Positions 1,496 through 37,046 of a stretch of DNA of 63,210 nt are shown here, piece by piece; within the stretch, counting starts at the first letter, position 1; every line of letters begins with the position of its first letter. A model generated the notes under the pieces. It was not told the origin of the DNA and ran no database searches. It saw nothing but the letters and a program-made list of their open reading frames with translations. Location of the stretch: positions 1 through 63,210 of the forward strand of contig JAGLWU010000020.1 of NCBI GenBank assembly GCA_023133275.1, in the 5' to 3' direction. The position numbers were made by a program, and so were the translations under genes. This stretch comes from Candidatus Moraniibacteriota bacterium (GTDB lineage: Bacteria > Patescibacteriota > Minisyncoccia > Moranbacterales > GCA-2747515).

Positions 1496-2542
1496 ATGAA
1501 AACCAAACTAAAAGAAATTTCGATGAAAGATGAATTAACAGAATTTCTTCTTTACACATCTCCCAGCGGAGAAATAAAAGTAGAAGTCTTTTTGCAGGAC
1601 GAAACAATTTGGCTTACCCAAAAAAGAATAGCAGAACTTTTTGGAAAGGGACGAAGTACCATCACAGAGCATTTACAAAATATTTTTAAAGATGGCGAAT
1701 TACAAGAAGAACTGGTTAGTCGGGATTTCCGACATACCACTCAACACGGTGCTATTGACGGAAAAACACAAGTAAACAGTGTTAAATTTTACAATTTAGA
1801 TGCAGTTTTATCTGTAGGATATCGAGTAAATTCATCACAAGCAACACAATTTAGGATTTGGGCAACTAAAATTTTAGAAGGTTATATCATTAAAGGTTTT
1901 GCAATGAATGTCGAAAGACTAAAAGACCCAACTCCTATTTTTGGAAAAGATTATTTTCGTGAACAGGTAGAAATAATTAGAGATATTCGCAGTAGTGAGC
2001 GAAGAATGTACCAGCAAATTACTGATATTTATGCAGAATGTTCTGTTGATTATGATAAAAATTCAGAAATAACCAAAGAATTTTTTGCCACAGTTCAAAA
2101 TAAACTTCACTGGGCTATCATAAAACAAACAGCCGCAGAAATTATTGTTAATAGAGCTGATTCTACAAAGGAAAAAATGGGACTGACTACTTGGAAAAAT
2201 TCGCCAAAAGGAAAAATAAGAAAGAGAGATGTAAGTGTCGCTAAAAATTATTTAACAGAAAAAGAATTGAAACCATTGAATAGGATAGTGGTAATGTATT
2301 TAGATTATGCTGAACATCAAGCACAGAAAAGTATTGCTATGACAATGAAAGATTGGATAAAAAAATTAGATATTTTTTTACAATTTAATGAAGAAGAGAT
2401 TTTAAAAAATTCAGGTAAGATAACAGCGGAAATAGCTAAAATATTTGCAGAAAATGAATTTGAAAAATATAAAGTAATTCAAAATAAAGATTATATTTCT
2501 GATTTTGACAAGGAAGTTGAAAAATTAAAAATTCATAAATAA
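1496..2542 (+). CDS. rhuM: RhuM-family (virulence protein RhuM-like) protein
   Basis: N-terminal IKVEVFLQDETIWLTQKRIAELFGKGRSTITEHLQNIF, YNLDAVLSVGYRVNSSQATQFRIWATKIL and the overall 348-aa length are typical of the RhuM family. Confidence 0.8.
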   Translation: MKTKLKEISMKDELTEFLLYTSPSGEIKVEVFLQDETIWLTQKRIAELFGKGRSTITEHLQNIFKDGELQEELVSRDFRHTTQHGAIDGKTQVNSVKFYNLDAVLSVGYRVNSSQATQFRIWATKILEGYIIKGFAMNVERLKDPTPIFGKDYFREQVEIIRDIRSSERRMYQQITDIYAECSVDYDKNSEITKEFFATVQNKLHWAIIKQTAAEIIVNRADSTKEKMGLTTWKNSPKGKIRKRDVSVAKNYLTEKELKPLNRIVVMYLDYAEHQAQKSIAMTMKDWIKKLDIFLQFNEEEILKNSGKITAEIAKIFAENEFEKYKVIQNKDYISDFDKEVEKLKIHK

Positions 2543-2568
2543 TTAATTTAAATTTTAACTAAAAAATT

Positions 2569-3651
2569 ATGAAAATCGAACTTAAAGAAATTTCAATTAA
2601 AGATGTCGTAAATAATTATATTAACAACAACGAAGAAGGAGTCATCGGCTACAACGGAAAACTAAACATCCGCCCAAAATACCAAAGAGAATTTGTTTAC
2701 AAAGACGCTCAAAGAGATTCCGTAATCAATACCGTCAGAAAAAATTTCCCACTCAATGTTATGTATTGGGTAAAAAACGAAGACGAAACCTATGAAGTTT
2801 TAGACGGACAACAGAGAACTATAAGCGTTTGCGAATACGTCGCAGGAAATTTTTCACTAAATTATCAATATTTTCACAACCTCGAAGATTCCGAAAAAGA
2901 CGAAATTCTCAATTATAAATTGATGGTTTATTTCTGCGAGGGAACACCTAAAGAAAAATTAGACTGGTTTGAAATCATAAATATTGCTGGAGAAAAATTA
3001 ACCGATCAAGAATTACGAAATGCAATTTACACCGGAACTTGGCTAACCGACGCAAAAAGACATTTCAGTAAATCAGGTTGTCCAGCTTACGGATTGGCAA
3101 GTGATTATTTAAAAGGTTCAGCGATTCGTCAAGATTATTTAGAAACGGCAATTCGCTGGATTAGCGATGATAGTATTAAAGAATACATGGCAGAAAATCA
3201 ACATAAACCAAACGCCAATGAATTGTGGCTATATTTTCAAAGTGTAATAAATTGGATTAAAGTTACTTTTCCAAAATATCGTAAAGAAATGAAGGGAATT
3301 GATTTTGGTGTTTTGTATAATGAATTTAAAGACAAAGAATTTGATTCAGAAAAATTAGAAAAAGAAATAATAGAATTAATGCAAGATGAGGATGTAACAA
3401 AAAAGTCAGGAATTTATTCTTATGTTTTGACAAAAAATGAAAAGTTCTTAAATATCCGTTCGTTTACAGAAAAACAAAAGCGGGAGACTTATGAAAAGCA
3501 AAAAGGTATTTGTGTGAAGTGTGAAAAACATTTTGAATTAAATGAAATGGAGGCGGATCATATTAAACCTTGGCACGAGGGCGGTAAGTCAACATCAGAA
3601 AATTGCCAGATGTTATGTAAAATGTGCAATAGAATTAAATCAGGAAAATAG
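2569..3651 (+). CDS. DUF262/ParB-like nuclease domain protein with C-terminal HNH endonuclease
   Basis: DGQQRT motif (DUF262, GmrSD N-terminal type) near the N-terminus. C-terminal HNH: CVKCEKHF, ADHIKPWHEGGKSTSENCQMLCKMCNRIKSGK. Sits 27 nt downstream of rhuM. Confidence 0.8.
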   Translation: MKIELKEISIKDVVNNYINNNEEGVIGYNGKLNIRPKYQREFVYKDAQRDSVINTVRKNFPLNVMYWVKNEDETYEVLDGQQRTISVCEYVAGNFSLNYQYFHNLEDSEKDEILNYKLMVYFCEGTPKEKLDWFEIINIAGEKLTDQELRNAIYTGTWLTDAKRHFSKSGCPAYGLASDYLKGSAIRQDYLETAIRWISDDSIKEYMAENQHKPNANELWLYFQSVINWIKVTFPKYRKEMKGIDFGVLYNEFKDKEFDSEKLEKEIIELMQDEDVTKKSGIYSYVLTKNEKFLNIRSFTEKQKRETYEKQKGICVKCEKHFELNEMEADHIKPWHEGGKSTSENCQMLCKMCNRIKSGK

Positions 3652-4295: not shown

Positions 4296-4739
4296 ATGAG
4301 AAATTATTTTCTTTCAAAAACTAAAATACCAGAAAAATTATCAGTGGAAATGCAAGGGGTAATTGATGATTTAAAACAATCTTCAAATCAAGAAGAATGT
4401 TTACAAAAAGTGTATAAAATTATGACGAGTAGATATCGTGGGTATAAACTTAGAACTTACAGAAGATTTTTTAATATTTTTACTTTTAATGTTGAAAAAT
4501 TGTGGAATGATGAAGGGTTTATCCATTGTCATAATGCTAATTTTTTGTTGAGAATTTTATTAGTAAAAAGTGGATTTTTTAAAAATGAGGATATTGAAAA
4601 TAAGTGGACGTTAACTGGGTATTTAGCGATTCATCAGTATTTGAAAATAAAATTATATAGTGGTAAAAATGTTAATATTGATGTTTGGGGTGCGTCGTAT
4701 GGAATTAAATTTGGTGATTATTCTAATGGTTTTCATTAA
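4296..4739 (+). CDS. hypothetical protein (possible transglutaminase-like Cys/His fold)
   Basis: 147-aa ORF. GFIHCHNANFLLRILL plus a later H and D loosely resemble a transglutaminase-like core. Function is uncertain. Confidence 0.4.
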   Translation: MRNYFLSKTKIPEKLSVEMQGVIDDLKQSSNQEECLQKVYKIMTSRYRGYKLRTYRRFFNIFTFNVEKLWNDEGFIHCHNANFLLRILLVKSGFFKNEDIENKWTLTGYLAIHQYLKIKLYSGKNVNIDVWGASYGIKFGDYSNGFH

Positions 4740-4765
4740 ATTATTAACTCTTTTCAAAATTAAAA

Positions 4766-4785
4766 CAAGGAGTCATGACTCCTTG
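4766..4785. repeat. perfect 20-bp palindrome CAAGGAGTCATGACTCCTTG next to a GC box
   Basis: Read directly. A sequence-variant partner, AACAAGGGGTCATGACCCCTTGTT, sits at 12261-12284 in the same position relative to a GC box. Confidence 0.8.
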
Positions 4786-4793
4786 TCCAAAAA

Positions 4794-4811
4794 AGCCCGT
4801 GCGGCGAGCAC
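4794..4811 (+). repeat. GC-box repeat, exact AGCCCGTGCGGCGAGCAC
   Basis: Exact 18-mer flanked by an A-run and a T-rich tract, between convergent genes. Confidence 0.9.
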
Positions 4812-7721: not shown

Positions 7722-8576
7722 TTACTTTTTGCTTTTTTTGATTAAATAATCTATCATCATTCCAGAAATATCTATTCCTGTGAATTCTTGAGCCTTTGAA
7801 AAATTGCAAGGGAAATTTACTTCACTTACGTAAGGTTTATTATTTTTATCAATCATAATATCAACACCGCCAAATTCTATTCCTAAAGAATGAACAGCCT
7901 TAATAGCAATTTGATTTATTTCTTTAGGATATTCTTTAATTTCTTTTTTAATATTTATATTCAATCTAAATTCAGAGGAATGTTTTATATTACAAGTGCT
8001 TGCAATAACTTTATCACCTAAAACATTTATTCTAGCTTGTTCATTGTGATCTATAAACTCGCTTAATTTAAAATCTGTTTTGATATATTCAAATTTTTTT
8101 GAATTAAAAAAATCAATTATTGATATTAATGATTCCATACTATCTATTCTCATAACTCCAACACCATGACTTCCGCCCAAGGCTTTGATTACAATTGGAA
8201 AGCCTCCAAGATGCTCAACATACTTCTTTAGTAATTCTTTATTTTTTGGTAAATAATTTATTGTTTTAGGTATTGGTAGATTATTTTTATAATAAATTAT
8301 GTCTTGTAGATCTTTATTTATAAAGCTATAATCAGGATTTGTATAAAAAGAAGATACTTCTTCATTTAATAAAAAAGATTCTATAATTCGTGCCTTGCTT
8401 CCAGTTTTAACTCTATAAAATAAATCATTTTTTGTTAAATTTATTTTATTTGTAAAATTGAAATTTTCAACTTCTATTGGAATAAATTTTATATTTTTTT
8501 CTTCACATGATTTTTTTAAATATTTAAGGGATGTGTCGGTTGAATGTTTATTTTCTACTATACAATAAAAGCTCAT
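7722..8576 (-). CDS. RimK-like ATP-grasp ligase
   Basis: GGFPIVIKALGGSHGVGVMRI (ATP-binding Lys plus Gly loop), SEFID, ARINVLG, GGVDIM...YVSEVNFPC (E-x-N Mg site). Confidence 0.75.
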   Translation of the reverse strand: MSFYCIVENKHSTDTSLKYLKKSCEEKNIKFIPIEVENFNFTNKINLTKNDLFYRVKTGSKARIIESFLLNEEVSSFYTNPDYSFINKDLQDIIYYKNNLPIPKTINYLPKNKELLKKYVEHLGGFPIVIKALGGSHGVGVMRIDSMESLISIIDFFNSKKFEYIKTDFKLSEFIDHNEQARINVLGDKVIASTCNIKHSSEFRLNINIKKEIKEYPKEINQIAIKAVHSLGIEFGGVDIMIDKNNKPYVSEVNFPCNFSKAQEFTGIDISGMMIDYLIKKSKK

Positions 8577-8626
8577 ATTTTTTAAATAAGTGATTAATAG
8601 AATAAATTATAACATAAATTTGATTT

Positions 8627-9565
8627 TTAAGAAAAAATATTAGTTAAATCTTCATAAACTTTTATTGCAATCTTTTTATCTTCAGGTTTAAAAAGCATTC
8701 CTGGAGCAGAATTAAATTCAATTATCCATGGATTTTCTTTTTCATCAAACATAAGATCAATTGAATAATGTTTGTTTTCAAAAACTGAAAATAAATTATT
8801 TATATAATTAACTATTTCAATAATTTTGTCAGGCAAGTCTCTTGTATCGATTATAGTTTTGCTGCCACCTAATGAAACATTAGCTAATAAACTATCTTTT
8901 GGTGGTTGTCTGTAGTATGTATGAGAAATTTCATTATCTATCATTATAACTCTTAAATCATGCGTTCCTTTCATGATGTTTGGAATTCCATTTTTTGAAT
9001 TAATAAATTCTTGAACAATCCATGAATATGGAATGGTACTTTTTGAGATAAATTCACAAGTTTCTTTTTTATTTAAAATATGGATATCTCTTCCTCTGCT
9101 TAGGGTTGCAGGTTTTATAATAACTCTATTGCTCTTTAATAATGCAATCTCTTCAATATTTTTTTTATTTAAAATATTAATTTGTTTTTTTGTGTAAAAA
9201 GGTGCTAAAAAAGGCAAAAATCTTTTATTATCTAATAAAGTAGAAAAATCTAATGGATTTATGAATGGAAAAATATTTGCTAATTTTTGAACAATAGAGC
9301 CACATCTTTTCTCAGAAGTCAATTTATCAAAAATAACATCTGGTTTTATATTTTTGCATCTGATCCATTTACCATTTTTAAAACTCCAAGCGTGTGAAAA
9401 TATTTTATTTTCATCATTGAACCATTGATAAGAAGCTCTATATAATTTGATATCATTTTTATAAAAAGTCTCATACATCAATTCGTAAGAATATTTATAT
9501 GAGTCATCTGTAAAAACCTCTTCTTCCCATTTTTTTTTACCAAATAAGATCAGTGCTTTTTTCAT
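8627..9565 (-). CDS. ATP-grasp ligase, YheC/YheD- or TTL-like
   Basis: RVIIKPATLSRGRDIHIL, WIVQEFI, HDLRVIMID, SLGGSKT, YSIDLMFDEKENPWIIEFNSAPG. Confidence 0.65.
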   Translation of the reverse strand: MKKALILFGKKKWEEEVFTDDSYKYSYELMYETFYKNDIKLYRASYQWFNDENKIFSHAWSFKNGKWIRCKNIKPDVIFDKLTSEKRCGSIVQKLANIFPFINPLDFSTLLDNKRFLPFLAPFYTKKQINILNKKNIEEIALLKSNRVIIKPATLSRGRDIHILNKKETCEFISKSTIPYSWIVQEFINSKNGIPNIMKGTHDLRVIMIDNEISHTYYRQPPKDSLLANVSLGGSKTIIDTRDLPDKIIEIVNYINNLFSVFENKHYSIDLMFDEKENPWIIEFNSAPGMLFKPEDKKIAIKVYEDLTNIFS

Positions 9566-9569
9566 ATTT

Positions 9570-10508
9570 TTATTTAAAAAATTTTAATAAATCTTCATAA
9601 AACTCTTTTTGGTATTTCATTTCCTCTTTTTCCAGAATTAAACCCGGACGAGAATTCAGTTCAATCAACCAAATTTTATTATTATTATCAAACATAAAAT
9701 CTATTGCATAAAGTTTTTTATTTGCATCAATTTTATCTATTTCATCAATAATATTGTCAATAAAAATTTTAATATCATTATTTTTTAATAAATCTTCAAT
9801 CGGGATAACTTTTAAAGTTCCACCTTGGGAAATATTTGCAAGATAACTATTTTTTTTAGGAAAACGAGCAAATGAATAAAAAGGAGTTTTATTTCTAATA
9901 ATAACTCTAATGTCATGATAACTATTAACTAGATCATTTTTTATATTAGATGAATCAATAAACTCTTGTATTATAACAGGAAATTTAACTTTTTCTAAAT
10001 TATTTTTTAATAATTTTTTTTCTGTTACAAAAATACCTTCACCGCCAGACAATGATAAAGGTTTAATAATAATTTTTTGTGTTTTTAATTCATTAATTTT
10101 TTCTAAATCACTTTTTTTATTTAATGTAACAGATTTTGGAGAAAGATTTTTGAATTGTTGATAAGTTAAGTCTTTATCACTCATCAACTTACTTAATTTA
10201 AGACTATTATAAAAAGTGTAGCTTTTTTCGATAAGCTCTCTAATTTTTATTTTTTTAATAGATAGGCTATAGCTAGATTTGTCATAAACAACATTTGGAC
10301 TTATGTTTTTTTTCCATATCCATTTTCTATTTTCAAAAAATTGAGCTTTTTTAAAAATATTTTTTTCTTCATCATAAAAAGAAATAGAAGATCGACATAA
10401 TTTAATTTTATTTTTTTTAAAATAAGAATAAAGTGGTTCATAACCCATTTTGCCACTTTGAGGTGATTTTGTAGAGTTTCCGCTAAATAAAATTAATATT
10501 GTTTTCAT
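9570..10508 (-). CDS. ATP-grasp ligase, YheC/YheD- or TTL-like (paralogue of 8627-9565)
   Basis: KIIIKPLSLSGGEGIFV, VIIQEFID, HDIRVIIRN, SQGGTLK, YAIDFMFDNNNKIWLIELNSRPG. There is a 4-nt gap to the next gene. Confidence 0.65.
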   Translation of the reverse strand: MKTILILFSGNSTKSPQSGKMGYEPLYSYFKKNKIKLCRSSISFYDEEKNIFKKAQFFENRKWIWKKNISPNVVYDKSSYSLSIKKIKIRELIEKSYTFYNSLKLSKLMSDKDLTYQQFKNLSPKSVTLNKKSDLEKINELKTQKIIIKPLSLSGGEGIFVTEKKLLKNNLEKVKFPVIIQEFIDSSNIKNDLVNSYHDIRVIIRNKTPFYSFARFPKKNSYLANISQGGTLKVIPIEDLLKNNDIKIFIDNIIDEIDKIDANKKLYAIDFMFDNNNKIWLIELNSRPGLILEKEEMKYQKEFYEDLLKFFK

Positions 10509-10549
10509 ATATATTTTTATTATTAAAATTTGAAAATATTTGTAAAAGT

Positions 10550-11959
10550 TTATTTACTAATATCAATTAAAAAATTCGACAAATCCCTTTTGCCAACAAT
10601 CATCCCATATTTCAAATCACCCCGATCAACAATATTCACCCTAGCAATAACAACCTTCTTATCCATAACAAACCTAACCTTAACAACAGGACGAATAGAA
10701 GAACCACTAGAAGAAAAAACAACTGCCACATTATCCAAATCAGGAATCAAATCTTTATATTTCAATAAAAAATCTTTCTTAATCAAAGATTCTTTTTCAG
10801 GTTTTAAATCAAATTCAGATAAATCAATTTTATCAAATTCCTCCAAAGTCTTCCCAAATCCCAAATCAATCGCAATTTTCCGATCAATTGAACTAGAATA
10901 AGCACCCGTATCTATTTTAGCCTCAATTACCACTTCTTGTCCAGCCTTTCCAATCAATTTAACCTTTTCCACCGAACCAATCACACGCTTACCAGAAGTA
11001 CTTTCCAGTTCCTCCTCAATCTCACCACCAAACAAATTTTTACCAACAGCCACTCCTCGAGCAATGCTTTTAATTTTCAAACCAGCCACTCGTTCCAATC
11101 TCTTTTTTAATCCAGTCATATTGGCAACTTGAATAGATAAACCCGGTCGGGCATTTAATTCAAAAAAAACAGGTCCAAGATTTTTATCAACAGCAATGTC
11201 AGATCCTAAAAATCCTAGTTTAGAAACGACTTGAGCTTTTACTGCCAAAGTTAAAATTTCATTCCAATAAGGAATTTTAATACCTGACAACATCAATCTT
11301 GATTTAGGAACATATTCAACAATTTTTCCTTTTCCCTGAACGGCAGTCGTTGTAACACCTTTTGCCATATCAATTCCAATCCCAATCCCGCCTTGTTGCA
11401 AATTAGCTTTGCCGCCAGACTCTCTGGTGGGAATACGGAGCATTGCCATCACAGGAACTTTATTATAAACAATTACTCGAATGTCAGGTATTCCTTTATA
11501 AGCGTACGGTTTAAAATCTTTTATAATTTGCAATCTTTCTTCAAAAAAGGCAATGTCAGGACTGTTGGAAATTGAAAAACCGCCATCGAGAATATTGCGA
11601 ATGTGATCAGTTAAATCCTGTACAGTTACAATTTTCCCATCAGCTTTTATCCATCGATCGTCAAAGCCTTTTTTTCTGGCGTAAACTACTAGAATTCCAG
11701 AACCACCTAATCCACTGTTCGGTTTTAAAACAAAACTTGGTGGTAAAATACTCCAATCAAAATTTTCCAAAGTTTTATGAGAGGAAATTTGGGCAATTAA
11801 TTTTGGAACGGGGATATTATTTTTTTTCAAAAGTTTTTTGGAACGGATTTTATCATCGGCCAGCCTTTTGGCTCCTTTGAGATTATTAGGTCGAATGTAG
11901 GTTAAATTTCGAGCATTCATTCCTAAAATATTTTTTCCAGCTTTGAGTATATTAAACAT
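10550..11959 (-). CDS. alpha-L-glutamate-ligase-related ATP-grasp fused to a C-terminal retropepsin-like (DUF785/RimB-type) domain
   Basis: N-terminal ILGMNARNLTYIRPNN...AKRLADDKIRSKKLL is typical of the RimK-related glutamate-ligase-like family. ATP-grasp core: FVLKPNSGLGGSGILV, PDIRVIVYN, LQQGGIG, VFFELNARPG. C-terminus: VIEAKIDTGAYSSSID, a D-T-G-A aspartyl motif. Confidence 0.75.
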   Translation of the reverse strand: MFNILKAGKNILGMNARNLTYIRPNNLKGAKRLADDKIRSKKLLKKNNIPVPKLIAQISSHKTLENFDWSILPPSFVLKPNSGLGGSGILVVYARKKGFDDRWIKADGKIVTVQDLTDHIRNILDGGFSISNSPDIAFFEERLQIIKDFKPYAYKGIPDIRVIVYNKVPVMAMLRIPTRESGGKANLQQGGIGIGIDMAKGVTTTAVQGKGKIVEYVPKSRLMLSGIKIPYWNEILTLAVKAQVVSKLGFLGSDIAVDKNLGPVFFELNARPGLSIQVANMTGLKKRLERVAGLKIKSIARGVAVGKNLFGGEIEEELESTSGKRVIGSVEKVKLIGKAGQEVVIEAKIDTGAYSSSIDRKIAIDLGFGKTLEEFDKIDLSEFDLKPEKESLIKKDFLLKYKDLIPDLDNVAVVFSSSGSSIRPVVKVRFVMDKKVVIARVNIVDRGDLKYGMIVGKRDLSNFLIDISK

Positions 11960-12072
11960 AATATTTAGATTTTTAGTATTTTAGACAATTAGACTCGTAG
12001 AAACGTAGTACTGCTACGTTTCAAATTTCAATTAGAAATTTATAAATTAATATTTTTCAAAAAGTACAGCCA

Positions 12073-12241
12073 GTCATTCTGAACGGATTTATTTTTTCTA
12101 ACAAAAAAATAAAGGAATAAAAAATCTCAATAAGTTTTTCTGATATTTTCACTTTACTAATTTCAAAGTTTAATATTTTTCCGCAGGGGATTCTTCACTT
12201 CATAAATTTTTTTACAAAAAATTTATTATGTTCAGAATGAC
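12073..12241. repeat. 169-bp palindromic (MITE-like) unit with inverted ends GTCATTCTGAACGG / (C)ATGTTCAGAATGAC
   Basis: The ends and inner segments (AAAGGAATAAAAAATCTC vs GGGGATTCTTCACTTC) are mutually complementary. A second full copy lies at 32442-32604, with half copies at 20436-20492 and 46922-46984. Confidence 0.75.
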
Positions 12242-12291
12242 AGTAAACTTTCAGAATTTCAACAAGGGGTCATGACCCCTTGTTTCAGAAA

Positions 12292-12309
12292 AGCCCGTGC
12301 GGCGAGCAC
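12292..12309 (+). repeat. GC-box repeat, exact
   Basis: AGCCCGTGCGGCGAGCAC, preceded by the 24-bp perfect palindrome at 12261-12284. Confidence 0.9.
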
Positions 12310-12447
12310 AAAAAAATTTTTTGAAAATAATTTAAAACTTAAAACTTAATTAAACTTTTAGATTCAATCTACAAAATTAAACTAATTAATTATTTAAAAA
12401 TTAAAATTTCAATCAAAATTCAAAATTTGTAATTCAAAATTTTCAAA

Positions 12448-13152
12448 CTATTCTTTTATTCTTTTCAACACTTCGCGAAAACGAAAATATTCATTTAATC
12501 TTAATCCAGTCCATTTACCAATAAAAACGTTAAAAGGCAAAATTAGTAAAATTACGAATGGATAAGCTAATACAAAACTTATAATATTGTGTCCAACAGA
12601 TGTTCGGTAGCTCATTAAAATGTATCCGACCAAAGCAATAATCAAAGTTTCTAAAGCTAAAATTGAAGCGGTTTTTGTTCCTTTTTCGATTTGAACGGCG
12701 ACAAATTTTTCTACCAAAGTGATTATGATTAAAATAGCAAATATTGAAGCGGAGGCAAATCCTGTGCGATTGAAATGTCCTGCGACGGCCAATAAAATAA
12801 GTGTGGTGAATGATACGACGGTTATCATTATTGCTACTCTAGGTAAATAAAGAAGACGCATTTTTTTCAAAACATAACGCATGAGCATTCCTGTTGCTAA
12901 AACAATTACATAAATTGCAATGGCATATTTCAAATCCCAAAAATTATTTTCCGCAATTTTAATAAAAGAGACAGTAATAATTGTTGGCGTGTAAACTCCA
13001 AAAGCTTTAATTCCAAGGACTTGTCTTAAAATAACCACGATAGTAGCAATTAATGGAAAGAGAAGTAATAAAATAACAGTGTTTAAAGGTACTCCTGATT
13101 GGATAAAAAAAAGATTGATCCAAGGATGGATGTTAGTGAATAAATTTTCCAT
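12448..13152 (-). CDS. 7-TM membrane protein (7TM_transglut / CapC-PgsC-like)
   Basis: Seven hydrophobic helices. LGIKAFGVYTPTIITVSF resembles the G..P.G..VPG helix of PgsC/CapC-type proteins. The C-terminal GKWTGLRLNEYFRFREVL tail is typical of the 7TM module that accompanies RimK-related ligases. Confidence 0.55.
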   Translation of the reverse strand: MENLFTNIHPWINLFFIQSGVPLNTVILLLLFPLIATIVVILRQVLGIKAFGVYTPTIITVSFIKIAENNFWDLKYAIAIYVIVLATGMLMRYVLKKMRLLYLPRVAIMITVVSFTTLILLAVAGHFNRTGFASASIFAILIIITLVEKFVAVQIEKGTKTASILALETLIIALVGYILMSYRTSVGHNIISFVLAYPFVILLILPFNVFIGKWTGLRLNEYFRFREVLKRIKE

Positions 13153-13163: not shown

Positions 13164-13673
13164 TTATGAATTAAGTTTCTGTTGGTAAAGACGTGAATTT
13201 AAATGACAAAAGCTAACCGCTAAAGCGTCGGCAGCATCATCTGGTTTCGGAATCTCTTTTAATTTTAGCACATTTTTTATCATTAATTGCATTTGTTTTT
13301 TGTCAGCTCTTCCGTATCCGGTCAAGGCTTGTTTTATTTGTAGAGGTGTATATTCGCCGATTGGTAATTTTTTGTTTTTGCAAATATATAATATTACACC
13401 TCGAGCTTGAGCAACTGTGATGACTGTTTTTTTGTTTTTAAAATAAAATAATTCTTCAACAGCAACTTCATCAGGTTTGTATTCTTTGATTAATTCTTTT
13501 AAATCTTCGCCGATTAAATTTAAACGTTCAGGATTTGGTAAATCAGCAGAAGTGGTTATTTGTCCGTAATCGATTGTTTTTATTTCTTTAGAATTGTCTT
13601 GTTGTTCTAAAATTCCCCAACCAACGATTGCGGTCCCTGGGTCAATTCCAAGAACTTTGATTTTGTTTTTCAT
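13164..13673 (-). CDS. ruvC: crossover junction endodeoxyribonuclease RuvC
   Basis: VLGIDPGTAIVGWGIL, VAVEELFYFKN, ADKKQMQ, DDAADALAVSFCH. Confidence 0.9.
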   Translation of the reverse strand: MKNKIKVLGIDPGTAIVGWGILEQQDNSKEIKTIDYGQITTSADLPNPERLNLIGEDLKELIKEYKPDEVAVEELFYFKNKKTVITVAQARGVILYICKNKKLPIGEYTPLQIKQALTGYGRADKKQMQLMIKNVLKLKEIPKPDDAADALAVSFCHLNSRLYQQKLNS

Positions 13674-13692
13674 ATTTTCGAAAAATTAAATT

Positions 13693-13710
13693 GTGCTCGC
13701 CGCACGGGCT
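13693..13710 (-). repeat. GC-box repeat, exact (reverse orientation)
   Basis: GTGCTCGCCGCACGGGCT, 20 nt upstream of the ruvC start codon. Confidence 0.9.
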
Positions 13711-13714
13711 TTTT

Positions 13715-15562: not shown

Positions 15563-18289
15563 TTAAACAAATTTTACAATTCCAAAATCAATTTTAGTAA
15601 AAGTAAAATTTCTATTTTCTATAAATATAAAAGCGAGAGCTTTATTTTTAAACCAAGCTAAATAATTTTCTTTAAAAACATTAGCTAAAGTATTTTTAAT
15701 ATTTTCAAAAGGCAAAAAATTTTTATTTAACAACAAATTAATCTTTTCCAAAAAATTACCAAACGAGTTTTTACTTTTTATAGAAATCTCTTTTTTATTA
15801 TCAATATTTTTATTTTTATTCACTAAATTCATAGCAACCGATTGCATAAATAATTCATCTTGAAAACCTTTTTCATTCGCCAAGGCTTGAGCAATTATTT
15901 TTTGCACTTCAGGATCATTCAAATCATTTTCACCGCCATTTAAAATCCATTGCCATTCGCTATTTATTTTTTCGTAAGATTCATCATTTTTAATCTTTTC
16001 TTTTTCGTAAGAAACTTTATCAATCACTTTTCCATCAGGTTGTCGCAACTCGATAAAACCTTTTTTGTTCGGCAGGGAAATGGCGGAATATTCTCGAGTG
16101 ATTTTTTCGCTTTTTCCTTTTCCTATTTTTAAACTTTTTTTGATTGGATGATTGGTTAATTTATCTTTTTTCGATCCAGTGGCAATGCTCCAGCCCTCCA
16201 AATTTATTTTTTCTTTTGATTTATTTTCAATAACTAAATATTCATTTCCGCTATCTTTTCCTTTTGGATTTGGAACGATTTTTATAATTTCAATTTTGTA
16301 TTTTGGATATTTTTTCACTTCAATGGTAAAATTTTTCATAACTTCTTCACTCCCGTCTTGAACATGCAAACTTCCGTGATAAATTCCAGTTTCTATATAT
16401 TTATGTTTAGTTTCGGCTTTGTAACTTTTTCGTCCATCGCCGAAATCCCAACGAATTTTCAATTCTTCGTCGTCAATGTCAAAAACTTCTACTTTAAAAT
16501 TGGCATAAGTATTTTTGTAACTATTTTCATCAACGGAAAACTTTTTGATTTCTGGTAAATTGTTAAATTTATTTTTTGCGTTCGGTGTTAAAAATTTGCT
16601 CCACCGCCAATTTTTTTCATCTAAATTAAAATTATAAGAAATATTTTCTCTGGCACTTTTGTAACTTATTTCTGATTTTATTTTTTGATTGGGGGCGGTT
16701 AAAGTTACGGTTTCGCCACCAGAATTATTTAAAGCGAAATCAAAAGTTTTTCGATAAATTGTGAAATATGAATTAGCTGAAATTTTTTGATTTTCTGTAA
16801 AAGTATAATTTCCAGTTTTTGAGGAATCTTTTATCATCCAGTTTTCTAAATTAATTTCAAAATTATTTGGATTATAAATTTCGATAAATTCATCAGTTTT
16901 TTCTTCGCCAATTGGATTGGGTAAAATTTCGGAAAGTTGTAAGTCAGGATGTTTTTTAGTCAAAGGATTTTCATTATTTTTTTCGTTCGGCGTTGGCTCG
17001 GCAGAATAATTTTTTGACTTATCAAAATTCATCGAGAAACTCTCAATTGGATTTTCGTAAGTAAAAATTGTTTCAATGTTCGGATTTGGTGTTTTTAAAT
17101 AAATTGTGTCAGTATCATTATTTAACGAAAAGGAAAAATCTTTTTTCTGGTATAAAATTAAATATTCAAAAGGTTTTATTTCGATATTTTCTAAAACTTT
17201 TTTTGTGGATGAATTGTCTTTTAAAATCCAACCAGTTAAATCTACGGTTTCATCGTTGGGATTATAGAGTTCGATAAATTCGTTTTCAGTGTCAGTTCCG
17301 TTTGGATTTGGTAAAACTTCATTGATAATTATTTTGGGATATTTTTTTGTAGTTGGGTTTTCTGTGTTTTTATCGTTTGGTGTTGGAGTTGCTTCGTACC
17401 AGTTGTTTTTATCGTAATTCCAAGAAATGCCTTTTGTTGAAGTCGTATAACTTTTTTCTAAGAATATTTTTTCATTTGGAGCGATTAAATAAACTGTTTC
17501 ACCGCCAGAATTATTTAAAGCAAAAGAAAAATCATCACCTTTTGAAAAAGCAATTTTTTTTCCAGATTTTATTTTTACATTATTGAATTTTAATTTACTC
17601 TTAGTTTCATCTTTTAAAATCCAATTTGTTAAATCAATTTCTTTATCTCCATAATTATAAAGTTCTATAAATTCAGAATCGCCATCATTCGGATTTGCTA
17701 AAATTTCATTAATTCTAATTTTAGTTTCAGAGTAATCTTTTTTTTCAGGATTGTCATTATTTTTTTCGTTCGGCGTTGGAGTTTCTTCGTACCAATTATT
17801 TTTATCATAATTCCAAGATTGACCGCTAGTAGCAGAAGTGTATTTAAATTGAGATATTATATCTTTATTATCATCGTCATGATTATAATATAAAATTATT
17901 TCAGCTCCTGAATTTATAAGATTAGAAGGGTTGATTAATATATATTTATCCTCAATTTCGAAATCATTTAAACTCCAAATATTTGAAGGGTTATCTTTTA
18001 ATAATTTTCTATAACTTAATTTTAAATTTGTTAAATCAATTTTACTTTCAATGTAAATCTCAATAAATTCATTTCCAGAATCTTTGCCGTCGGGATTTGG
18101 CAAAATTTCATTAATTCTAATTTTAGTTTCAGAATAATCAATTTCTTTTTCAGCAGAAACTTTTATCGAAAAATAATTTGTGTTAAATAAAAGCAAATAA
18201 AAAATAAAACAAAGCGAAAACATCCTTTTGAAAGAATGTTTTTTGAAATTTATATTTTTGTTTCTAGAATTATTTTTGCGTTTGACCAT
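15563..18289 (-). CDS. secreted protein with five lamin-tail domains (LTD) and a PKD domain
   Basis: An IRINEILPNP.G.D..NEFIE(I/L)YN....(I/V)DL..W.(I/L)KD unit recurs five times. PKD-like segment: IRWDFGDGRKSYKAETKHKYIETGIYHGSLHVQDGS. N-terminal signal/TM present. The start may instead be the internal Met (MFSLCFIF). Confidence 0.8.
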   Translation of the reverse strand: MVKRKNNSRNKNINFKKHSFKRMFSLCFIFYLLLFNTNYFSIKVSAEKEIDYSETKIRINEILPNPDGKDSGNEFIEIYIESKIDLTNLKLSYRKLLKDNPSNIWSLNDFEIEDKYILINPSNLINSGAEIILYYNHDDDNKDIISQFKYTSATSGQSWNYDKNNWYEETPTPNEKNNDNPEKKDYSETKIRINEILANPNDGDSEFIELYNYGDKEIDLTNWILKDETKSKLKFNNVKIKSGKKIAFSKGDDFSFALNNSGGETVYLIAPNEKIFLEKSYTTSTKGISWNYDKNNWYEATPTPNDKNTENPTTKKYPKIIINEVLPNPNGTDTENEFIELYNPNDETVDLTGWILKDNSSTKKVLENIEIKPFEYLILYQKKDFSFSLNNDTDTIYLKTPNPNIETIFTYENPIESFSMNFDKSKNYSAEPTPNEKNNENPLTKKHPDLQLSEILPNPIGEEKTDEFIEIYNPNNFEINLENWMIKDSSKTGNYTFTENQKISANSYFTIYRKTFDFALNNSGGETVTLTAPNQKIKSEISYKSARENISYNFNLDEKNWRWSKFLTPNAKNKFNNLPEIKKFSVDENSYKNTYANFKVEVFDIDDEELKIRWDFGDGRKSYKAETKHKYIETGIYHGSLHVQDGSEEVMKNFTIEVKKYPKYKIEIIKIVPNPKGKDSGNEYLVIENKSKEKINLEGWSIATGSKKDKLTNHPIKKSLKIGKGKSEKITREYSAISLPNKKGFIELRQPDGKVIDKVSYEKEKIKNDESYEKINSEWQWILNGGENDLNDPEVQKIIAQALANEKGFQDELFMQSVAMNLVNKNKNIDNKKEISIKSKNSFGNFLEKINLLLNKNFLPFENIKNTLANVFKENYLAWFKNKALAFIFIENRNFTFTKIDFGIVKFV

Positions 18290-20375: not shown

Positions 20376-20393
20376 GTGCTCGTCGCACGGGCT
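20376..20393 (-). repeat. GC-box repeat, 1 substitution
   Basis: GTGCTCGTCGCACGGGCT, whose reverse complement is AGCCCGTGCGACGAGCAC. Confidence 0.85.
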
Positions 20394-20435
20394 TTTTTGA
20401 AACCATAGTAATTTAAAACTCTCGTGATTTTCTGT

Positions 20436-20492
20436 GGGGGATTCTTCATTCCTTTATTTTTTTAAAGAAAAAATAAATCCGTTCAGAATGAC
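20436..20492. repeat. half copy of the palindromic unit
   Basis: GGGGGATTCTTCATTCCTTTATTTTTTTAAAGAAAAAATAAATCCGTTCAGAATGAC is the reverse of the left half of the 12073-12241 unit. Confidence 0.7.
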
Positions 20493-21896: not shown

Positions 21897-24800
21897 TTAC
21901 AAATCTGTAACTCTTTTAACTTCATCAAAAGTCGTAACACCTTCCAACGCCTTCAAAACACCATCCTGTTTTATCGTTAACATACCATTTTCAATCGCTT
22001 TCTTTTTAATTTCAGAAGCCAGTTCACCATGCGAAATCACTAAACGCAAATCATCGTCTATCACCAAAATTTCACTAATTACCGTTCTACTTTTATAACC
22101 AATTTCATTACATTTCTCACAACCAACCTTTTCGTATAAATAATTCATTTCAGGAATTGGAAAATCAATTTTTGGAGTAATATTTTCAATAATTTTTGAA
22201 ATAATATTTTTTTGTTCTTCTGTTATTTTTACTTTCTTTTTACAATCGCAAAGTTTACGCACCAATCTTTGAGCGACAAAAGCATTTACAGAAGTAGTAA
22301 TATCATCCGTACTAATTCCTAAATTTAACAATCTTTGAATTGCACCAATTGCATCATTCGTGTGAAGTGAAGAAATTAATAAATGTCCCGTCAAAGCAGC
22401 ATTTACAGCCGTTTCAGCCGTTTCATTGTCACGAATTTCACCAACCAACATTATATCGGGATCCTGACGAAGAAGTGAACGTAAAGCAGAAGAAAAAGTG
22501 TAGCCAGATTCCTGATCAATTTGAGTTTGCAAAATTCCATCCAACTGATATTCAATCGGATCTTCAATAGTTATAATTTTAACTTCAGGACTTTGAATTT
22601 CTTTTAACAGACTGTAAAGAGTGGTAGTTTTTCCAGAACCAGTTGGTCCAGTGTTCAAAATAATTCCATGAGGTTTTTTTACTTCTTTAATTATTTTATT
22701 TAAATTGTACGGACGAATTCCCAAGACATTAATATTTAATTCTACAGTTTCTCTATTCAACAAACGCAACACAACCGTTTCACCAAAGCCTCCAGCGATT
22801 ATAGAAACACGAACATCCATTTTAAAATCTTTCATTTCATTTTCCACTTCATAAAGAACTCGGAAGCGACTATCGGAAACGCCTTGTCGAACTGTAGTGG
22901 GAATATTACTCAATTCTTTTATTTTTCCAAGTAGCGGAGGATAATTAATTAAAGGTATTTCAGCTATATTTTGTAACACGCCATCAACTCTCATTCTGAT
23001 AAAAACTTTTTCTTCTTGTGGTTCAATGTGAATATCACTGGCTCTCAAAAATTTTCCGTAAGCAAAAATGAGAGGTAGCATATCTTGATCGTTGGCTTTA
23101 TTTATACTTTCATTAATAACATTTTTACCGTGAGAAAGCTCTTGCGACATTTTCTGTTTTTCAATATCGACGAAAACTCCACGAGAAAGAGTTTGAAACA
23201 TTAAATCATCGTAAAGACTTTTAATTAAATCACTTTCTGACGTAACTCTAAAAATTTCTTCCATTGAAGTAACGCCGTCAATTGCTTTTAATACACCATC
23301 TTGTGTCATAGTAACAAAGCCTTCCTCAATTGCCGTTTTCATAATTGCTGTTTCACTTTCCATATTTAAAATCAATTTTTCAATATTTTCGCTCATGGTG
23401 AGAACTTCAAAAATTCCAATCCGTCCTTTGTAGCCAGTTTGATTACATTTTTTACAACCTCTTGGTTTATAAAGATGGGAAACGGTTTTTGGGATTTTCA
23501 CTTTTGCTTTTGGAGAAACTAAAGTCAACATTTGCAATAAAGTTTCAATTGTTTCTTGAGCAGGTTCATATCTCTCTTTGCAACCACACAATTTTCGAAC
23601 TAATCTTTGTGCCATAAAAATATTGGTAGCGGCGGGAATTAAAGTTGGCTTAACTCCTAATTCTAAAAGTCGAGAAACAGTGGCTGGAGCATTATTAGTG
23701 TGTAAAGTTGATAAAACTAAATGTCCTGTCAAGGCAGCATTGATAGCAATGTTAGCCGTTTCATCATCACGAATTTCACCAACTAAAATAATATCAGGAT
23801 CTTGACGAACGATGGCACGTAAACCCTTGGCAAAAGTATAATTTTTATCTTTAGAGACTTCAGTTTGAGAAATTCCTTCAATCTCATATTCAATCGGATC
23901 TTCAATCGTAATTATTTTTGTTTTAGGAGTTTTGATATGATTTACTAAAGTGTAAAGAGTAGTAGTTTTACCAGAGCCAGTTGGTCCTGTCGTTAAAATC
24001 ATTCCAGTATTTTTACTAATATTATTTTGAACATCCTCCGCCGCTTTTCCAATCAAGCCTAATTCTGACATTTGAACATTGATACTTTCGTTATCTAAAA
24101 GACGCATCACAATTCCTTCAAATTTTTTCCCTGGAATACTACTGACTCTGACATCAATGGAACGAGTTTTATTAACGCTAAAAGAAAAGTGTCCATCTTG
24201 TGCTTCTCTTTTAATATTGATTTTCATTCCGCTCATTAATTTAATCCGAGAAAGAGCTAATTTATAAGTTTTGTGTGGAAAATTAACAATATCTTGTAAA
24301 ACACCATCAATTCTGTAACGTAATCGCACACCCTCTTTTTGTGGCTCAAGATGAATGTCGCTGGCATTCAATTTTACTGCCGCAGAAAAAAGAATATGTA
24401 AAAGCTCAGTGGTCGGCATTGAATCAATTTTATTTTTCAAATCCAACAGTTTTCCAATTCCTGTGTTAAAATTTTCTAACTCTTCGCCAGTCAACATTAA
24501 ACGCATCACGTCTATTGAATCGATAAAATAAGCCCCTCGATATTGTTTTAAGGCTTGTTCTAAAGATGATGGTGAAATTACATACAATCTAATTTCCCAA
24601 TTATTTGTTTCACTTAATTCATTTAGAAATTCTAAAGTATCGCTGTTCAACGGATCGGTTGTTCCTATTCTTATTAAATTTCCAGCTCGGAAAAAAATGA
24701 CTAGATTGTATTTTTCAGAAAGTTCTTGTTTTATTAAAGATACGTCATCACTATTTATTGGCAGTAGGTGTAAATCTGCATAACCCAAACTTAATTTTCT

Positions 24801-24917
24801 GGCTATTCGAGAGGCATATTCCTCAGATCCTTTTTCTTGAAGCATTTCTATTTCTCGTCGAGTTTCTTCTTCGTGGAGAGGTTGTGATTTTTGTGTTGTT
24901 TGGGTTACTTTGACCAT
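21897..24917 (-). CDS. pilB: tandem-duplicated type IV pilus / T2SS assembly ATPase (PilB/GspE x2 in one polypeptide)
   Basis: N-terminal T2SSE_N-like domain, then two full ATPase cores. Module 1: ASDIHLEP, GPTGSGKTTTLYTL, DPDIILVGEIRD, TGHLVLSTLHTN, CGC...CKKCNQTGYKGRIGIFE. Module 2: ASDIHIEP, GPTGSGKTTTLYSL, DPDIMLVGEIRD, TGHLLISSLHTN, CDC...CEKCNEIGYKSR. Confidence 0.85.
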   Translation of the reverse strand: MVKVTQTTQKSQPLHEEETRREIEMLQEKGSEEYASRIARKLSLGYADLHLLPINSDDVSLIKQELSEKYNLVIFFRAGNLIRIGTTDPLNSDTLEFLNELSETNNWEIRLYVISPSSLEQALKQYRGAYFIDSIDVMRLMLTGEELENFNTGIGKLLDLKNKIDSMPTTELLHILFSAAVKLNASDIHLEPQKEGVRLRYRIDGVLQDIVNFPHKTYKLALSRIKLMSGMKINIKREAQDGHFSFSVNKTRSIDVRVSSIPGKKFEGIVMRLLDNESINVQMSELGLIGKAAEDVQNNISKNTGMILTTGPTGSGKTTTLYTLVNHIKTPKTKIITIEDPIEYEIEGISQTEVSKDKNYTFAKGLRAIVRQDPDIILVGEIRDDETANIAINAALTGHLVLSTLHTNNAPATVSRLLELGVKPTLIPAATNIFMAQRLVRKLCGCKERYEPAQETIETLLQMLTLVSPKAKVKIPKTVSHLYKPRGCKKCNQTGYKGRIGIFEVLTMSENIEKLILNMESETAIMKTAIEEGFVTMTQDGVLKAIDGVTSMEEIFRVTSESDLIKSLYDDLMFQTLSRGVFVDIEKQKMSQELSHGKNVINESINKANDQDMLPLIFAYGKFLRASDIHIEPQEEKVFIRMRVDGVLQNIAEIPLINYPPLLGKIKELSNIPTTVRQGVSDSRFRVLYEVENEMKDFKMDVRVSIIAGGFGETVVLRLLNRETVELNINVLGIRPYNLNKIIKEVKKPHGIILNTGPTGSGKTTTLYSLLKEIQSPEVKIITIEDPIEYQLDGILQTQIDQESGYTFSSALRSLLRQDPDIMLVGEIRDNETAETAVNAALTGHLLISSLHTNDAIGAIQRLLNLGISTDDITTSVNAFVAQRLVRKLCDCKKKVKITEEQKNIISKIIENITPKIDFPIPEMNYLYEKVGCEKCNEIGYKSRTVISEILVIDDDLRLVISHGELASEIKKKAIENGMLTIKQDGVLKALEGVTTFDEVKRVTDL

Positions 24918-29341: not shown

Positions 29342-29702
29342 AAACTTTTTATTTAAAAATTACTACTTTTATTTTATCACACATTTTGTTTTAGTAAAAA
29401 ATATTTTGGAAAAAACAAGGATTTAATGTGTTGAATAAAATTTATCGAAATTGTTATATTTTATTTTAATTTACTTTTATTGTATTTGCAAAGATGAAAA
29501 TTTTTTAAATTTATTTTTTTGAAAATGTTTAATGCAAGTTTATTTACAGACAAATTATTCAAAAATAAGGATTGACATTAAATTAGGTAAAGTTTATTCT
29601 TAATTATAATTGAGGAAAAGGTTGTGATAAAAATTTGAAAAATCTTTTTGAAAATTTTCATTTTAAATATAATAAAATGAAAATGCAAACTATTTTCAAA
29701 AA

Positions 29703-29720: not shown

Positions 29721-29744
29721 CTTTTTTAATTATTAAAATATTTT

Positions 29745-37041: not shown

Positions 37042-37046
37042 ATTTT

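Follow-up and report, generated by a model that had tools for sequence, protein, structure and literature searches.

A probable variant of the Rlo system with a fused ATP-grasp ligase and retropepsin-like protease in a Moranbacteria genome

We analysed a window of 63,210 nucleotides (~30% G+C), contig JAGLWU010000020.1 of assembly GCA_023133275.1 from a Candidatus Moraniibacteriota bacterium, in which five minus-strand genes encode a seven-transmembrane (7TM) protein, an ATP-grasp ligase fused to a retropepsin-like protease, and three further ATP-grasp ligases, followed by PBP1A, a class A penicillin-binding protein. The cluster is very probably a variant of the Rlo-type system. A preliminary description, made from the sequence alone, had placed the five genes, a 4-nt gap and a 488-bp spacer exactly where we find them, and had recognised a triad of ligase, 7TM protein and DUF785 protease, an assignment that the Pfam and NCBIfam families bore out. 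This triad was reportedly predicted by comparative genomics in 2009 by Iyer et al., and had been presented as such a prediction with no defined product. The product is still undefined, but the triad now corresponds to the RloABC system, with genetics, structures and in vitro polyglutamate cleavage (PMC12239564). Public databases list the proteins under generic names; the characterisation of the Rlo system dates from 2025. The genes are as follows.

12448-13152, minus strand: 7TM membrane protein, 234 amino acids (open reading frame (ORF) list and profile search)
11960-12447: spacer of 488 bp between the 7TM and fusion genes
10550-11959, minus strand: ligase-protease fusion (core enzyme), 469 amino acids
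9570-10508, minus strand: accessory ATP-grasp ligase G2, 312 amino acids
8627-9565, minus strand: accessory ATP-grasp ligase G3, 312 amino acids
7722-8576, minus strand: accessory RimK-like ATP-grasp ligase, 284 amino acids
4888-7653, minus strand: PBP1A (Transgly 4e-59, Transpeptidase 3e-22)
Gaps: fusion to G2, 41 nt; G2 to G3, 4 nt (9566-9569); G3 to RimK-like, 50 nt; RimK-like to PBP1A, 68 nt

In the rloABC operon of Pseudomonas aeruginosa (Lormand et al., mBio 2025; PMC12239564), RloA is a secreted retropepsin-like peptidase with two redundant paralogues that cuts runs of at least eight glutamates in vitro, RloB has an inactive transglutaminase domain ahead of seven membrane helices, and RloC is a cytoplasmic ATP-grasp protein. 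Residues K46, R114 and R137 of RloA serve polyglutamate binding and are needed for function; R114 and R137 contact the polyglutamate, and their mutation abolishes function (PMC12239564). We used a canonical rloA-rloB-rloC operon on a Legionella plasmid (L086) as the reference. The window cluster contains the same three families, namely an ATPgrasp_ST/TIGR02291 ligase, a 7TM_transglut protein and a DTG retropepsin-like peptidase. It differs in that the protease is fused to the cytoplasmic ligase, whereas RloA is separate and secreted, with a signal peptide and a disulfide pair; in that the 7TM protein lacks the inactive transglutaminase ectodomain of RloB; in gene order (7TM then ligase-protease, as against rloA-rloB-rloC); in the zero to three accessory ATP-grasps and the PBP1A gene that lie downstream in Moranbacteria loci; and in its host, a candidate-phyla bacterium from a group that is not known to have an outer membrane.

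The ligase-protease fusion and its membrane partner

The preliminary description had reported a protease fused to the ligase and a missing transglutaminase-like module, and the domain matches of the fusion and the length of the 7TM protein agree with both. The segments of the fusion are given below.

11087-11911, minus strand: ATP-grasp ligase domain, residues 17-291 (extent of the Pfam match)
10985-11074, minus strand: inter-domain linker IKSIARGVAVGKNLFGGEIEEELESTSGKR, Glu-rich and almost invariant (translation)
10553-10984, minus strand: retropepsin-like protease domain, residues 326-469
10904-10912, minus strand: catalytic D350-T351-G352

The ligase part matched Pfam ATPgrasp_ST (PF14397; 3e-66) over residues 17-291 and TIGR02291 ('alpha-L-glutamate ligase-like') at 1e-79 and 268 bits, while TIGR00768 (RimK) reached only 46 bits. 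The usual N-terminal domain is missing, and the ATP-grasp match begins at about residue 17-34. The domain is 38% identical to RloC of the Legionella plasmid, and 38-39% identical across the RloC proteins of Legionella and Aeromonas. Residue conservation was assessed in 25 homologues of 63-85% identity, among which K79, G83, G85, G86, G88, D254, E267 and N269 were invariant. Searching the PDB directly with the sequence of the fusion gave no match, and a homologue profile was needed. The structure prediction suggested in the preliminary description yielded an AlphaFold2 model (predicted local distance difference test score, pLDDT, of 80) with two folded domains joined by a low-confidence linker, and its top structural matches were RimK and ArgX. 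The fusion contains no transmembrane segment and no signal peptide, and is predicted to be cytoplasmic.

Linker residues L309, F310, G311, G312, E313, E315, E319, S322 and G323 were invariant, and residues 313-328 had a pLDDT below 50 in the single-chain model, that is, they are predicted to be flexible or disordered. The Glu-rich stretch is not present in stand-alone RloC. It could be imagined as a retroviral-style self-cleavage site or as a pseudo-substrate of the protease, a reading that is weakened because distant fusions keep the LFGG...SGK frame of the linker without its glutamates, and because the linker holds at most three consecutive glutamates, against the eight or more needed by RloA in vitro.

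The C-terminal 145 residues of the fusion matched the NCBIfam RloA3, RloA2 and RloA1 models at 2e-8 to 1e-4, with scores all far under the cutoffs of these models. A profile of the 25 homologues matched the RloA crystal structures 9G59 and 9G58 at 5e-6 and 2PMA at 3.5e-4, and the domain is 24% identical to Legionella RloA. The motif KIDTGAY is translated from 10898-10918; D350-T351-G352-A353, R423 and R446 were invariant, and K348 was at least 90% conserved. K348 and D350 correspond to K46 and D48 of RloA, and the 23-residue spacing of R423 and R446 equals that of R114 and R137. Judged by these matches, the fused domain is a retropepsin-like protease with a catalytic DTG and basic residues matching those of RloA. 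A cysteine (disulfide) pair marks the periplasmic RloA orthologues (PMC12239564). The fused domain contains no cysteine, and the fusion has no hydrophobic N-terminus.

A second system offers a comparison on the cytoplasmic side. RimK is a poly-alpha-L-glutamate ligase acting on ribosomal protein S6, and RimB is a cytoplasmic retropepsin-like trimming protease. In the absence of a signal peptide, a hydrophobic segment and a cysteine pair, the fused protease should act in the cytoplasm, as RimB does with RimK. Both systems combine a cytoplasmic ATP-grasp ligase with a cytoplasmic DTG protease, which in the Rim system binds and regulates RimK, and the fusion makes the partnership covalent. RimK is also the best structural match of the ligase domain, and one of the accessory genes is RimK-like. 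In contrast, the core ligase belongs to the RloC family and not to the RimK family, and the Rim system has no 7TM partner. We looked for rpsF, the gene of ribosomal protein S6, as a possible substrate gene, and it was not in the window.

The 7TM protein matched PF14402 (7TM_transglut) at 1e-25 and contains about seven hydrophobic segments. The NCBIfam RloB model aligned to it at positions 312-507 of 508 only (73.6 bits against a cutoff of 900), and BLASTP gave 25% identity to residues 310-505 of Legionella RloB (E 3e-18). The C-terminal motif GKWTGLRxxEYxRF is conserved and is common to the 7TM protein and RloB. Searches of the protein with Pfam and NCBIfam found no transglutaminase-like or other ectodomain, whereas Legionella RloB carries the PF14400 ectodomain (Transglut_i_TM). 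The window protein ends in glutamate, and its C-terminus was considered as an acceptor for polyglutamylation; this idea was rejected, as the last residue of 78 orthologues is K, L, Q, M or other, yet never glutamate.

Conserved core and variable ligases in related genomes

Public data hold more than 120 clusters of the ~469-amino acid fusion at 64-85% identity, and at least 580 species-level genomes encode a relative of it. Gene neighbourhoods were counted in the best 80 loci, all with a full-length fusion, in which ORFs were called and classified with the window proteins; these relatives are metagenome-assembled genomes of Moranbacteria (Patescibacteria). The 7TM gene lay directly upstream of the fusion on the same strand in 78 of the 80, so that the co-localisation of the core genes, which the preliminary description had wanted checked in related genomes, holds. 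RuvC was found upstream in 69 loci and YebC in 61, and PBP1A downstream in 65 (62 on the same strand). Within these 65 loci, the number of accessory ATP-grasps between the fusion and PBP1A was zero in 6, one in 30, two in 23 and three in 6.

The conserved core of the locus is thus the 7TM protein and the fusion only, and in Moranbacteria the fused architecture with no transglutaminase-like module is the norm. The preliminary description was correct that this version exists; it is not peculiar to this genome, and related fusions abound in other candidate phyla. The array of four ligases ahead of PBP1A is likewise present, with catalytic residues kept, but the cassette is variable, with zero to three accessory ligases in relatives, and the window stands at the top of this range. 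The slot between the fusion and PBP1A also holds MATCAP/DUF1704-like carboxypeptidase genes (10 of 80 loci), YdjC-like deacetylase genes (9 of 80) and, elsewhere, GT4 glycosyltransferases (L004, L005), methyltransferases and R2K-type ATP-grasps. The window has no MATCAP gene.

Protein identities were compared between the window, its closest relative (L001) and the more distant loci L009, L013 and L030.

YebC, RuvC and PBP1A: 81-86% to L001; 49-69% to the three distant loci
Ligase domain of the fusion: 85% to L001; 68-77% to the distant loci (85/77/69/68% across the four)
7TM protein: 77% to L001; 54-64% to the distant loci
Protease domain of the fusion: 83% to L001; 52-56% to the distant loci
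Accessory ligases: 27-42% to L001; 27-43% to the distant loci, with no match for the RimK-like protein in L009

At depth, no protein segment of the neighbourhood is better conserved than the ligase domain. Even from those of the closest relative, the accessory ligases diverge so far that they must have been replaced and not inherited as orthologues, and they form a hypervariable cassette. In five loci the slot contains ORFs of ~590-650 amino acids that match accessory ATP-grasps and appear to be two ligases fused in tandem (L031:8417-10195, L038:8417-10357, L041:8416-10323, L044:10070-11845 and L056:5975-7756).

G2 and G3 are true paralogues, as had been proposed (36% identity, E 8e-50), and the RimK-like protein is related to them at the fold level only. 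G2 matched ATPgrasp_YheCD (3e-13) and GSH-S_ATP (1e-10), and G3 matched the RimK, YheCD and TTL models, all at ~1e-9. Against the PDB, a profile of the G family found RimK (8e-12) and GshB (7e-9), and also LysX/ArgX and TTL/TTLL; an AlphaFold2 model of G2 (pLDDT 93.5) was closest to ArgX/LysX (1.5e-14), followed by RimK. The RimK-like protein matched PF08443 at 1.6e-21, above the gathering score, and the RimK structures of Pseudomonas and E. coli at 1e-15 to 9e-17 (9e-17 for Pseudomonas 7QYR), but it scored only 104 bits with TIGR00768 (cutoff 143) and 67 bits with the PRK10446 equivalog (cutoff 331).

The accessory ligases scored far under the curated cutoffs for RimK, GshB, LysX and MptN. 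Dala_Dala_lig_C matched at only 6e-7 to 6e-5 (29.5 bits for the RimK-like protein, just above the gathering score of 24, and 23.1 bits for G2, just below it); there was no match to the Ddl N-terminal domain, and the NCBIfam Ddl models gave the cluster ligases 15-28 bits against cutoffs of 243-262. The profile searches, which the preliminary description had set as a check, place the ligases in the RimK/LysX/GshB/TTL clade and not with PurK, CarB or Ddl. RimK, LysX/ArgX, GshB and TTL all extend the carboxylate of a peptide or protein by an amino acid.

A second check was the alignment of catalytic residues. Among 52 G-type sequences K149, G156, D270, E283 and N285 were invariant, as were K131, D239, E252 and N254 among 47 R-type sequences, and together with the 25 fusion homologues they confirm that the residues are conserved. 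Since the catalytic Lys, Asp and E-x-N are invariant within each family, the accessory ligases are predicted to be working enzymes. The earlier statement that all four ligases keep (V/I)IKP, a Gly-rich loop and E-x-N stood for the lysine, the aspartate and the E-x-N site, but not in detail: the lysine motif is VIKA in the RimK-like protein and VLKP in the fusion, and the loop of G3 is an atypical SRGRD in place of the family consensus SGGKG, with the invariant glycine, K, D and E-x-N retained. No hydrophobic segments or signal peptides were found in any of the four ligases, and all four are predicted to be cytoplasmic.

To survey the wider family we searched 50%-identity representatives exhaustively. 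Full-length ligase-retropepsin fusions were found down to 38% identity. Proteins of ~790 amino acids, common in Peregrinibacteria and other Patescibacteria, join ATPgrasp_ST, a retropepsin-like segment and MATCAP/DUF1704. The ligase is also fused to YdjC (P0177) and to a second ATP-grasp (P0210); one 880-amino acid protein joins Transglut_core, 7TM_transglut and ATPgrasp_ST. Among the fusions, the 7TM module and the ligase share one polypeptide in P0322 and in L091. An unannotated 584-amino acid ORF on plasmid CP007061 of Halobacterium sp. DL1 (L091:5170-6924) contains 7TM_transglut at 51-243 and ATPgrasp_ST at 286-557, and by its domain matches it is an archaeal RloB and RloC in one polypeptide; this locus (L091) has no transglutaminase-like domain and no protease nearby. 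The 7TM-ligase fusions argue that the C-terminus of the 7TM module lies in the cytoplasm and that the ligase works on the 7TM protein.

The triple fusions of Peregrinibacteria and other Patescibacteria share with the window cluster the ligase family, the LFGG...SGK frame, a retropepsin-like segment and an upstream 7TM_transglut gene. They differ in an extra C-terminal metallocarboxypeptidase-like domain, in a PKD ectodomain on the 7TM protein, the upstream gene of triple-fusion loci coding for a PKD-7TM_transglut protein, in a shorter and partly degenerate retropepsin segment, and in that PBP1A is not next door in the Peregrinibacteria loci. The two Peregrinibacteria loci have neither accessory ligases nor an adjoining PBP1A, and PBP1A adjacency was observed in Moranbacteria-type loci only. 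One triple-fusion locus (L093:5398-16376, Patescibacteria GCA_042571345.1) resembles the window in having YebC and RuvC upstream and an array of accessory ATP-grasps: the order is YebC, RuvC, PKD plus 7TM, and ligase-retropepsin-MATCAP, then a DegT aminotransferase gene, at least five consecutive ATP-grasp genes and a DUF3541 gene, a larger accessory array than that of the window. From the survey as a whole, the universal unit is the 7TM protein with an ATPgrasp_ST ligase, and the ectodomain, peptidase and accessory enzymes are variable. We found no published study of the triple fusions, which appear as database entries only, and no publication on the fused, ectodomain-less candidate-phyla variant, the accessory cassette or the PBP1A linkage.

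The spacer and the surrounding genes

The preliminary description had called the spacer between the 7TM gene and the ligases repeat-filled and co-transcription uncertain. The first statement is right in a stronger sense, as the spacer is built of dispersed repeat elements that recur across the window; the second is right for the window genome, but the uncertainty is local, since in relatives the two genes are separated by a median of ~15 bp (maximum ~322 bp) and often overlap. The 488-bp gap is the largest among the compared loci, and the spacer is a local insertion of dispersed repeats. Its elements are the following.

~12073-12241: MITE-like (miniature inverted-repeat transposable element) sequence of ~170 bp with 35-nt inverted ends (GTCATTCTGAAC...), arms 12073-12107 and 12207-12241
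12261-12284: 24-bp perfect palindrome that recurs directly downstream of PBP1A
12293-12312, minus strand: terminator-like hairpin GCTCGCCGCACGGGC followed by TTTTC (terminator scan)
Sites matching the hairpin region: 4764-4811, 13673-13713, 20376-20403, 29701-29721, 33690-33707, 40564-40585, 41815-41842, 45745-45782, 47772-47791

A 173-bp stretch of the spacer is 84% identical to 32448-32613, a second near-complete copy of the MITE-like element, and fragments of the element lie at 20448-20492 and 46930-46986; all copies are intergenic. The hairpin lies ~140 nt past the stop codon of the 7TM gene. A second copy is found at 13691-13709, and the region around it (12288-12329) matches at least nine further intergenic sites in the window in both orientations, so that the motif could be the usual terminator of this genome or a REP-like (repetitive extragenic palindromic) repeat. 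The spacer RNA folds far more stably than shuffled sequences (z -4.7). Rfam identified no RNA family in the cluster or the spacer, and a promoter scan was uninformative in such AT-rich DNA (42 sites against 37 expected).

Upstream of the 7TM gene lie YebC and then RuvC (13164-13673, minus strand; Pfam RuvC 1.3e-48). The RuvC gene is 11 nt from the 7TM gene, and in the window genome the two may share a transcript, with a promoter within the spacer perhaps driving the ligases. Further upstream, 15563-18289 (minus strand) encodes a 908-amino acid protein with four lamin-tail domains and a PKD domain, and a protein of the same type is found upstream of YebC in relatives.

The cytoplasmic N-terminal tail of PBP1A, before the membrane helix, is 88 amino acids long and strongly basic (25 K+R, 4 D+E, net +21). 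It was considered as a polyglutamate-binding partner and discarded, because the tail is not conserved and has a median length of 25 amino acids in relatives. Convergent with PBP1A is a plus-strand ORF at 4296-4739 (147 amino acids), in which a Cys...His...Asp spacing was spotted by eye. The ORF is conserved in the closest relative only, and with no support from Pfam or the PDB we dropped the ORF as a separate transglutaminase-like protein.

Other genes of the window include a type II restriction-modification pair at 36292-38072 (minus strand; Eco47II-family endonuclease, 1e-85, and C-5 cytosine DNA methylase, 1e-87), a RhuM-family gene (9e-107) adjoining a GmrSD-N/HNH endonuclease gene at 1496-3651 (plus strand), a pair at the window edge that is possibly a defence or mobile island, and a gene at 21897-24917 (minus strand) for a 1006-amino acid protein with two matches to T2SSE, the type II/IV secretion ATPase.

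Possible function and alternative explanations

In P. aeruginosa, rlo influences cell shape, biofilm formation, osmotic tolerance and sensitivity to beta-lactams. The rloA1-3 triple protease mutant has an abnormal shape, does not survive in low-salt medium and shows a raised sensitivity to antibiotics that act on the cell wall (PMC12239564). Deletion of rloB or rloC rescues this mutant (PMC12239564), which argues that the material to be processed by the protease is made by RloB and RloC. For the product, the authors think of polyglutamylated proteins or free poly-alpha-glutamate, and they speculate on a link to peptidoglycan synthases or hydrolases (PMC12239564). By analogy with these phenotypes, the physiological role of the window cluster is probably envelope homeostasis, and a link to the cell wall is plausible.

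On balance, we favour a mechanism in which an acidic alpha-peptide is built by a membrane-docked ligase, varied by the accessory ligases and kept to a limited length by the fused protease. The ligase would dock on the cytoplasmic face of the 7TM protein and use ATP to add alpha-linked acidic amino acids, most likely glutamate, to the carboxylate of an acceptor, which may be a peptide, a protein C-terminus or an envelope precursor. The fused aspartic protease, as a dimer, would trim or limit the acidic chain in the cytoplasm, in parallel with RimB for RimK, whereas RloA trims in the periplasm. G2, G3 and the RimK-like ligase would probably add further, different residues, and since they belong to a strain-variable cassette, the product would differ between lineages. 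Direct coupling of the 7TM protein and the ligase is argued for by their adjacency in 78 of 80 genomes and by the single-polypeptide fusions (L091, P0322), and coupling of the ligase to peptidases by the retropepsin fusions, the MATCAP triple fusions and the MATCAP-like genes in the slot. The tubulin tyrosination/polyglutamylation cycle, in which ATP-grasp ligases add residues and dedicated peptidases remove them, is an analogy of logic only: TTL-like ATP-grasp and MATCAP folds are genetically linked in the cluster's relatives, but the TTL similarity is weak (~1e-4 to 1e-9), there is no known tubulin-like substrate and the MATCAP partner is missing from the window. What the substrate and the product are, how the 7TM protein contributes and whether PBP1A is coupled to the cluster can only be inferred.

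Several observations weigh against this mechanism. Glutamate specificity is borrowed from RimK and from the RloA cleavage assays, and no RloC-type ligase has a known substrate or product. The TIGR02291 score of the fusion (268 bits) is below the curated cutoff of 314, a shortfall explained by the last 24 positions of the model, which are replaced by the linker; the TIGR00768 score of the RimK-like protein is also under its cutoff, and the Pfam Zn_protease match of the protease domain (1e-5) is under the gathering score. A retropepsin works as a dimer, which a model of the monomer is unable to show. The retropepsin-like segment of Peregrinibacteria is shorter and in some cases carries DTS, so that protease activity is not universal in the wider family. 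A terminator-like hairpin lies between the 7TM gene and the ligases in the window genome. Finally, sugar-modifying genes (YdjC-like deacetylase, GT4, DegT) fill the same variable slot in relatives, and with the Pfam family name 'sugar-transfer associated' they suggest that the acceptor could be a glycan in place of a peptide.

A more elaborate form of this mechanism, which we offer as speculation and think improbable, is an assembly line; stepwise synthesis of a hetero-oligopeptide had already been suggested in the preliminary description. Here the RloC-like ligase would begin an acidic alpha-peptide on an acceptor that is bound to the envelope and that the 7TM protein holds, each accessory ATP-grasp would add a different residue, the fused retropepsin would set the length, and the resulting lineage-specific hetero-oligopeptide would act on or with the co-transcribed class A penicillin-binding protein to tune wall synthesis.

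Two alternatives keep the same enzymology and change the acceptor only. ATP-grasp D-Asp ligases act on the cell wall in some Firmicutes, and, as the preliminary description had suggested, the ligases of the cluster might in the same way add amino acids to the stem peptide or cross-bridge of peptidoglycan precursors used by PBP1A. The persistence of PBP1A downstream (65 of 80 loci, 62 on the same strand) despite the changing genes between favours this possibility, as do a FemAB and a Mur ligase gene nearby in locus L004, MurD-like and MurJ genes within 7 kb in L092, and the defects of P. aeruginosa rlo mutants in cell shape, beta-lactam sensitivity and hypo-osmotic tolerance (PMC12239564). However, PBP1A is not adjacent in Peregrinibacteria, and its linkage may be inherited synteny, like that of YebC and RuvC; the Ddl-type matches are weak, with Ddl-model scores below cutoff, and a genuine Ddl is encoded at 53446-54495 in the window, outside the cluster. 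Accessory ligases that come in zero to three copies and undergo non-orthologous replacement fit a fixed wall chemistry poorly, and a protease with RloA-like polyglutamate-binding residues has no obvious role in precursor synthesis. We regard precursor modification as unlikely.

The second acceptor would be a glycan. Here the 7TM protein would handle a surface polysaccharide or a lipid-linked glycan, the ligases would join amino acids through amide bonds to its amino-sugars or uronic acids, and the cassette would be a variable surface-structure locus. A hypervariable cassette between conserved flanks does resemble capsule and O-antigen loci, the slot holds the YdjC-like deacetylase (fused to the ligase in P0177), the GT4 genes of L004 and L005, the DegT gene of L093 and methyltransferases, and the Pfam family is named 'sugar-transfer associated ATP-grasp'. 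But the ORF list and Pfam show no sugar-modifying gene inside the window cluster, the enzymes closest in structure and in sequence all act on the carboxylates of peptides or proteins, and the retropepsin and MATCAP peptidases point to a peptide product. Decoration of a glycoconjugate thus seems to us a doubtful explanation.

It is distinctly unlikely that the accessory ATP-grasps are unrelated neighbours with tasks of their own, such as RimK acting on S6 or glutathione-like peptide synthetases. Some distant G-type homologues do stand apart from fusion and 7TM genes, accessory ligases are absent in six of 65 loci, and the RimK-like protein resembles true RimK. Nevertheless, all the ligase genes are on the same strand with gaps of 4-50 nt, 59 of 65 loci have at least one ATP-grasp in the slot and L093 has at least five in a row, a second ATP-grasp is fused to the core protein in P0210, and the scores lie far below the curated cutoffs for the independent enzymes. 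Maturation of a ribosomally synthesised and post-translationally modified peptide (RiPP), with ATP-grasps cyclising or cross-linking a precursor as in graspetides of the microviridin type and the protease removing the leader, is extremely improbable: the G2 model matches RiPP ligases (7MGV, PsnB, MdnC) at ~1e-12 and the RimK-like protein weakly matches MvdD-type models, but these structural matches rank below or beside ArgX and RimK and are generic for the fold, the NCBIfam MvdD/SAV_5884-type scores are 24-25 bits against cutoffs of 350-475, the genes from the first ligase to PBP1A are only 4-68 nt apart, and the spacer lists no ORF of 60 amino acids or more, shorter ORFs not having been searched.

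RloB has been described as almost confined to Proteobacteria (PMC12239564), and the loci described here extend the Rlo family well beyond them. The pair of a 7TM protein and an RloC-like ligase is ancient and widespread, being found in Moranbacteria, Peregrinibacteria, other Patescibacteria and on a haloarchaeal plasmid, and the ectodomain of the 7TM protein is optional or replaced (none, PKD or transglutaminase-like). The occurrence of the 7TM module and the ligase as one polypeptide fixes the topology and argues for direct coupling. A cytoplasmic trimming protease attached to its ligase bridges the Rim and Rlo systems, and argues that the conserved function is control of product length and not a periplasmic location, while the recurrent linkage to further ATP-grasps and MATCAP-type carboxypeptidases points to a peptide that is built and trimmed. 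The small, fused and soluble Moranbacteria enzyme may be a handy biochemical entry to the product of the family. If the assembly line were true, its product would be a new kind of polymer or regulator in the envelope of candidate-phyla bacteria, and would supply the missing output of Rlo in pathogens.

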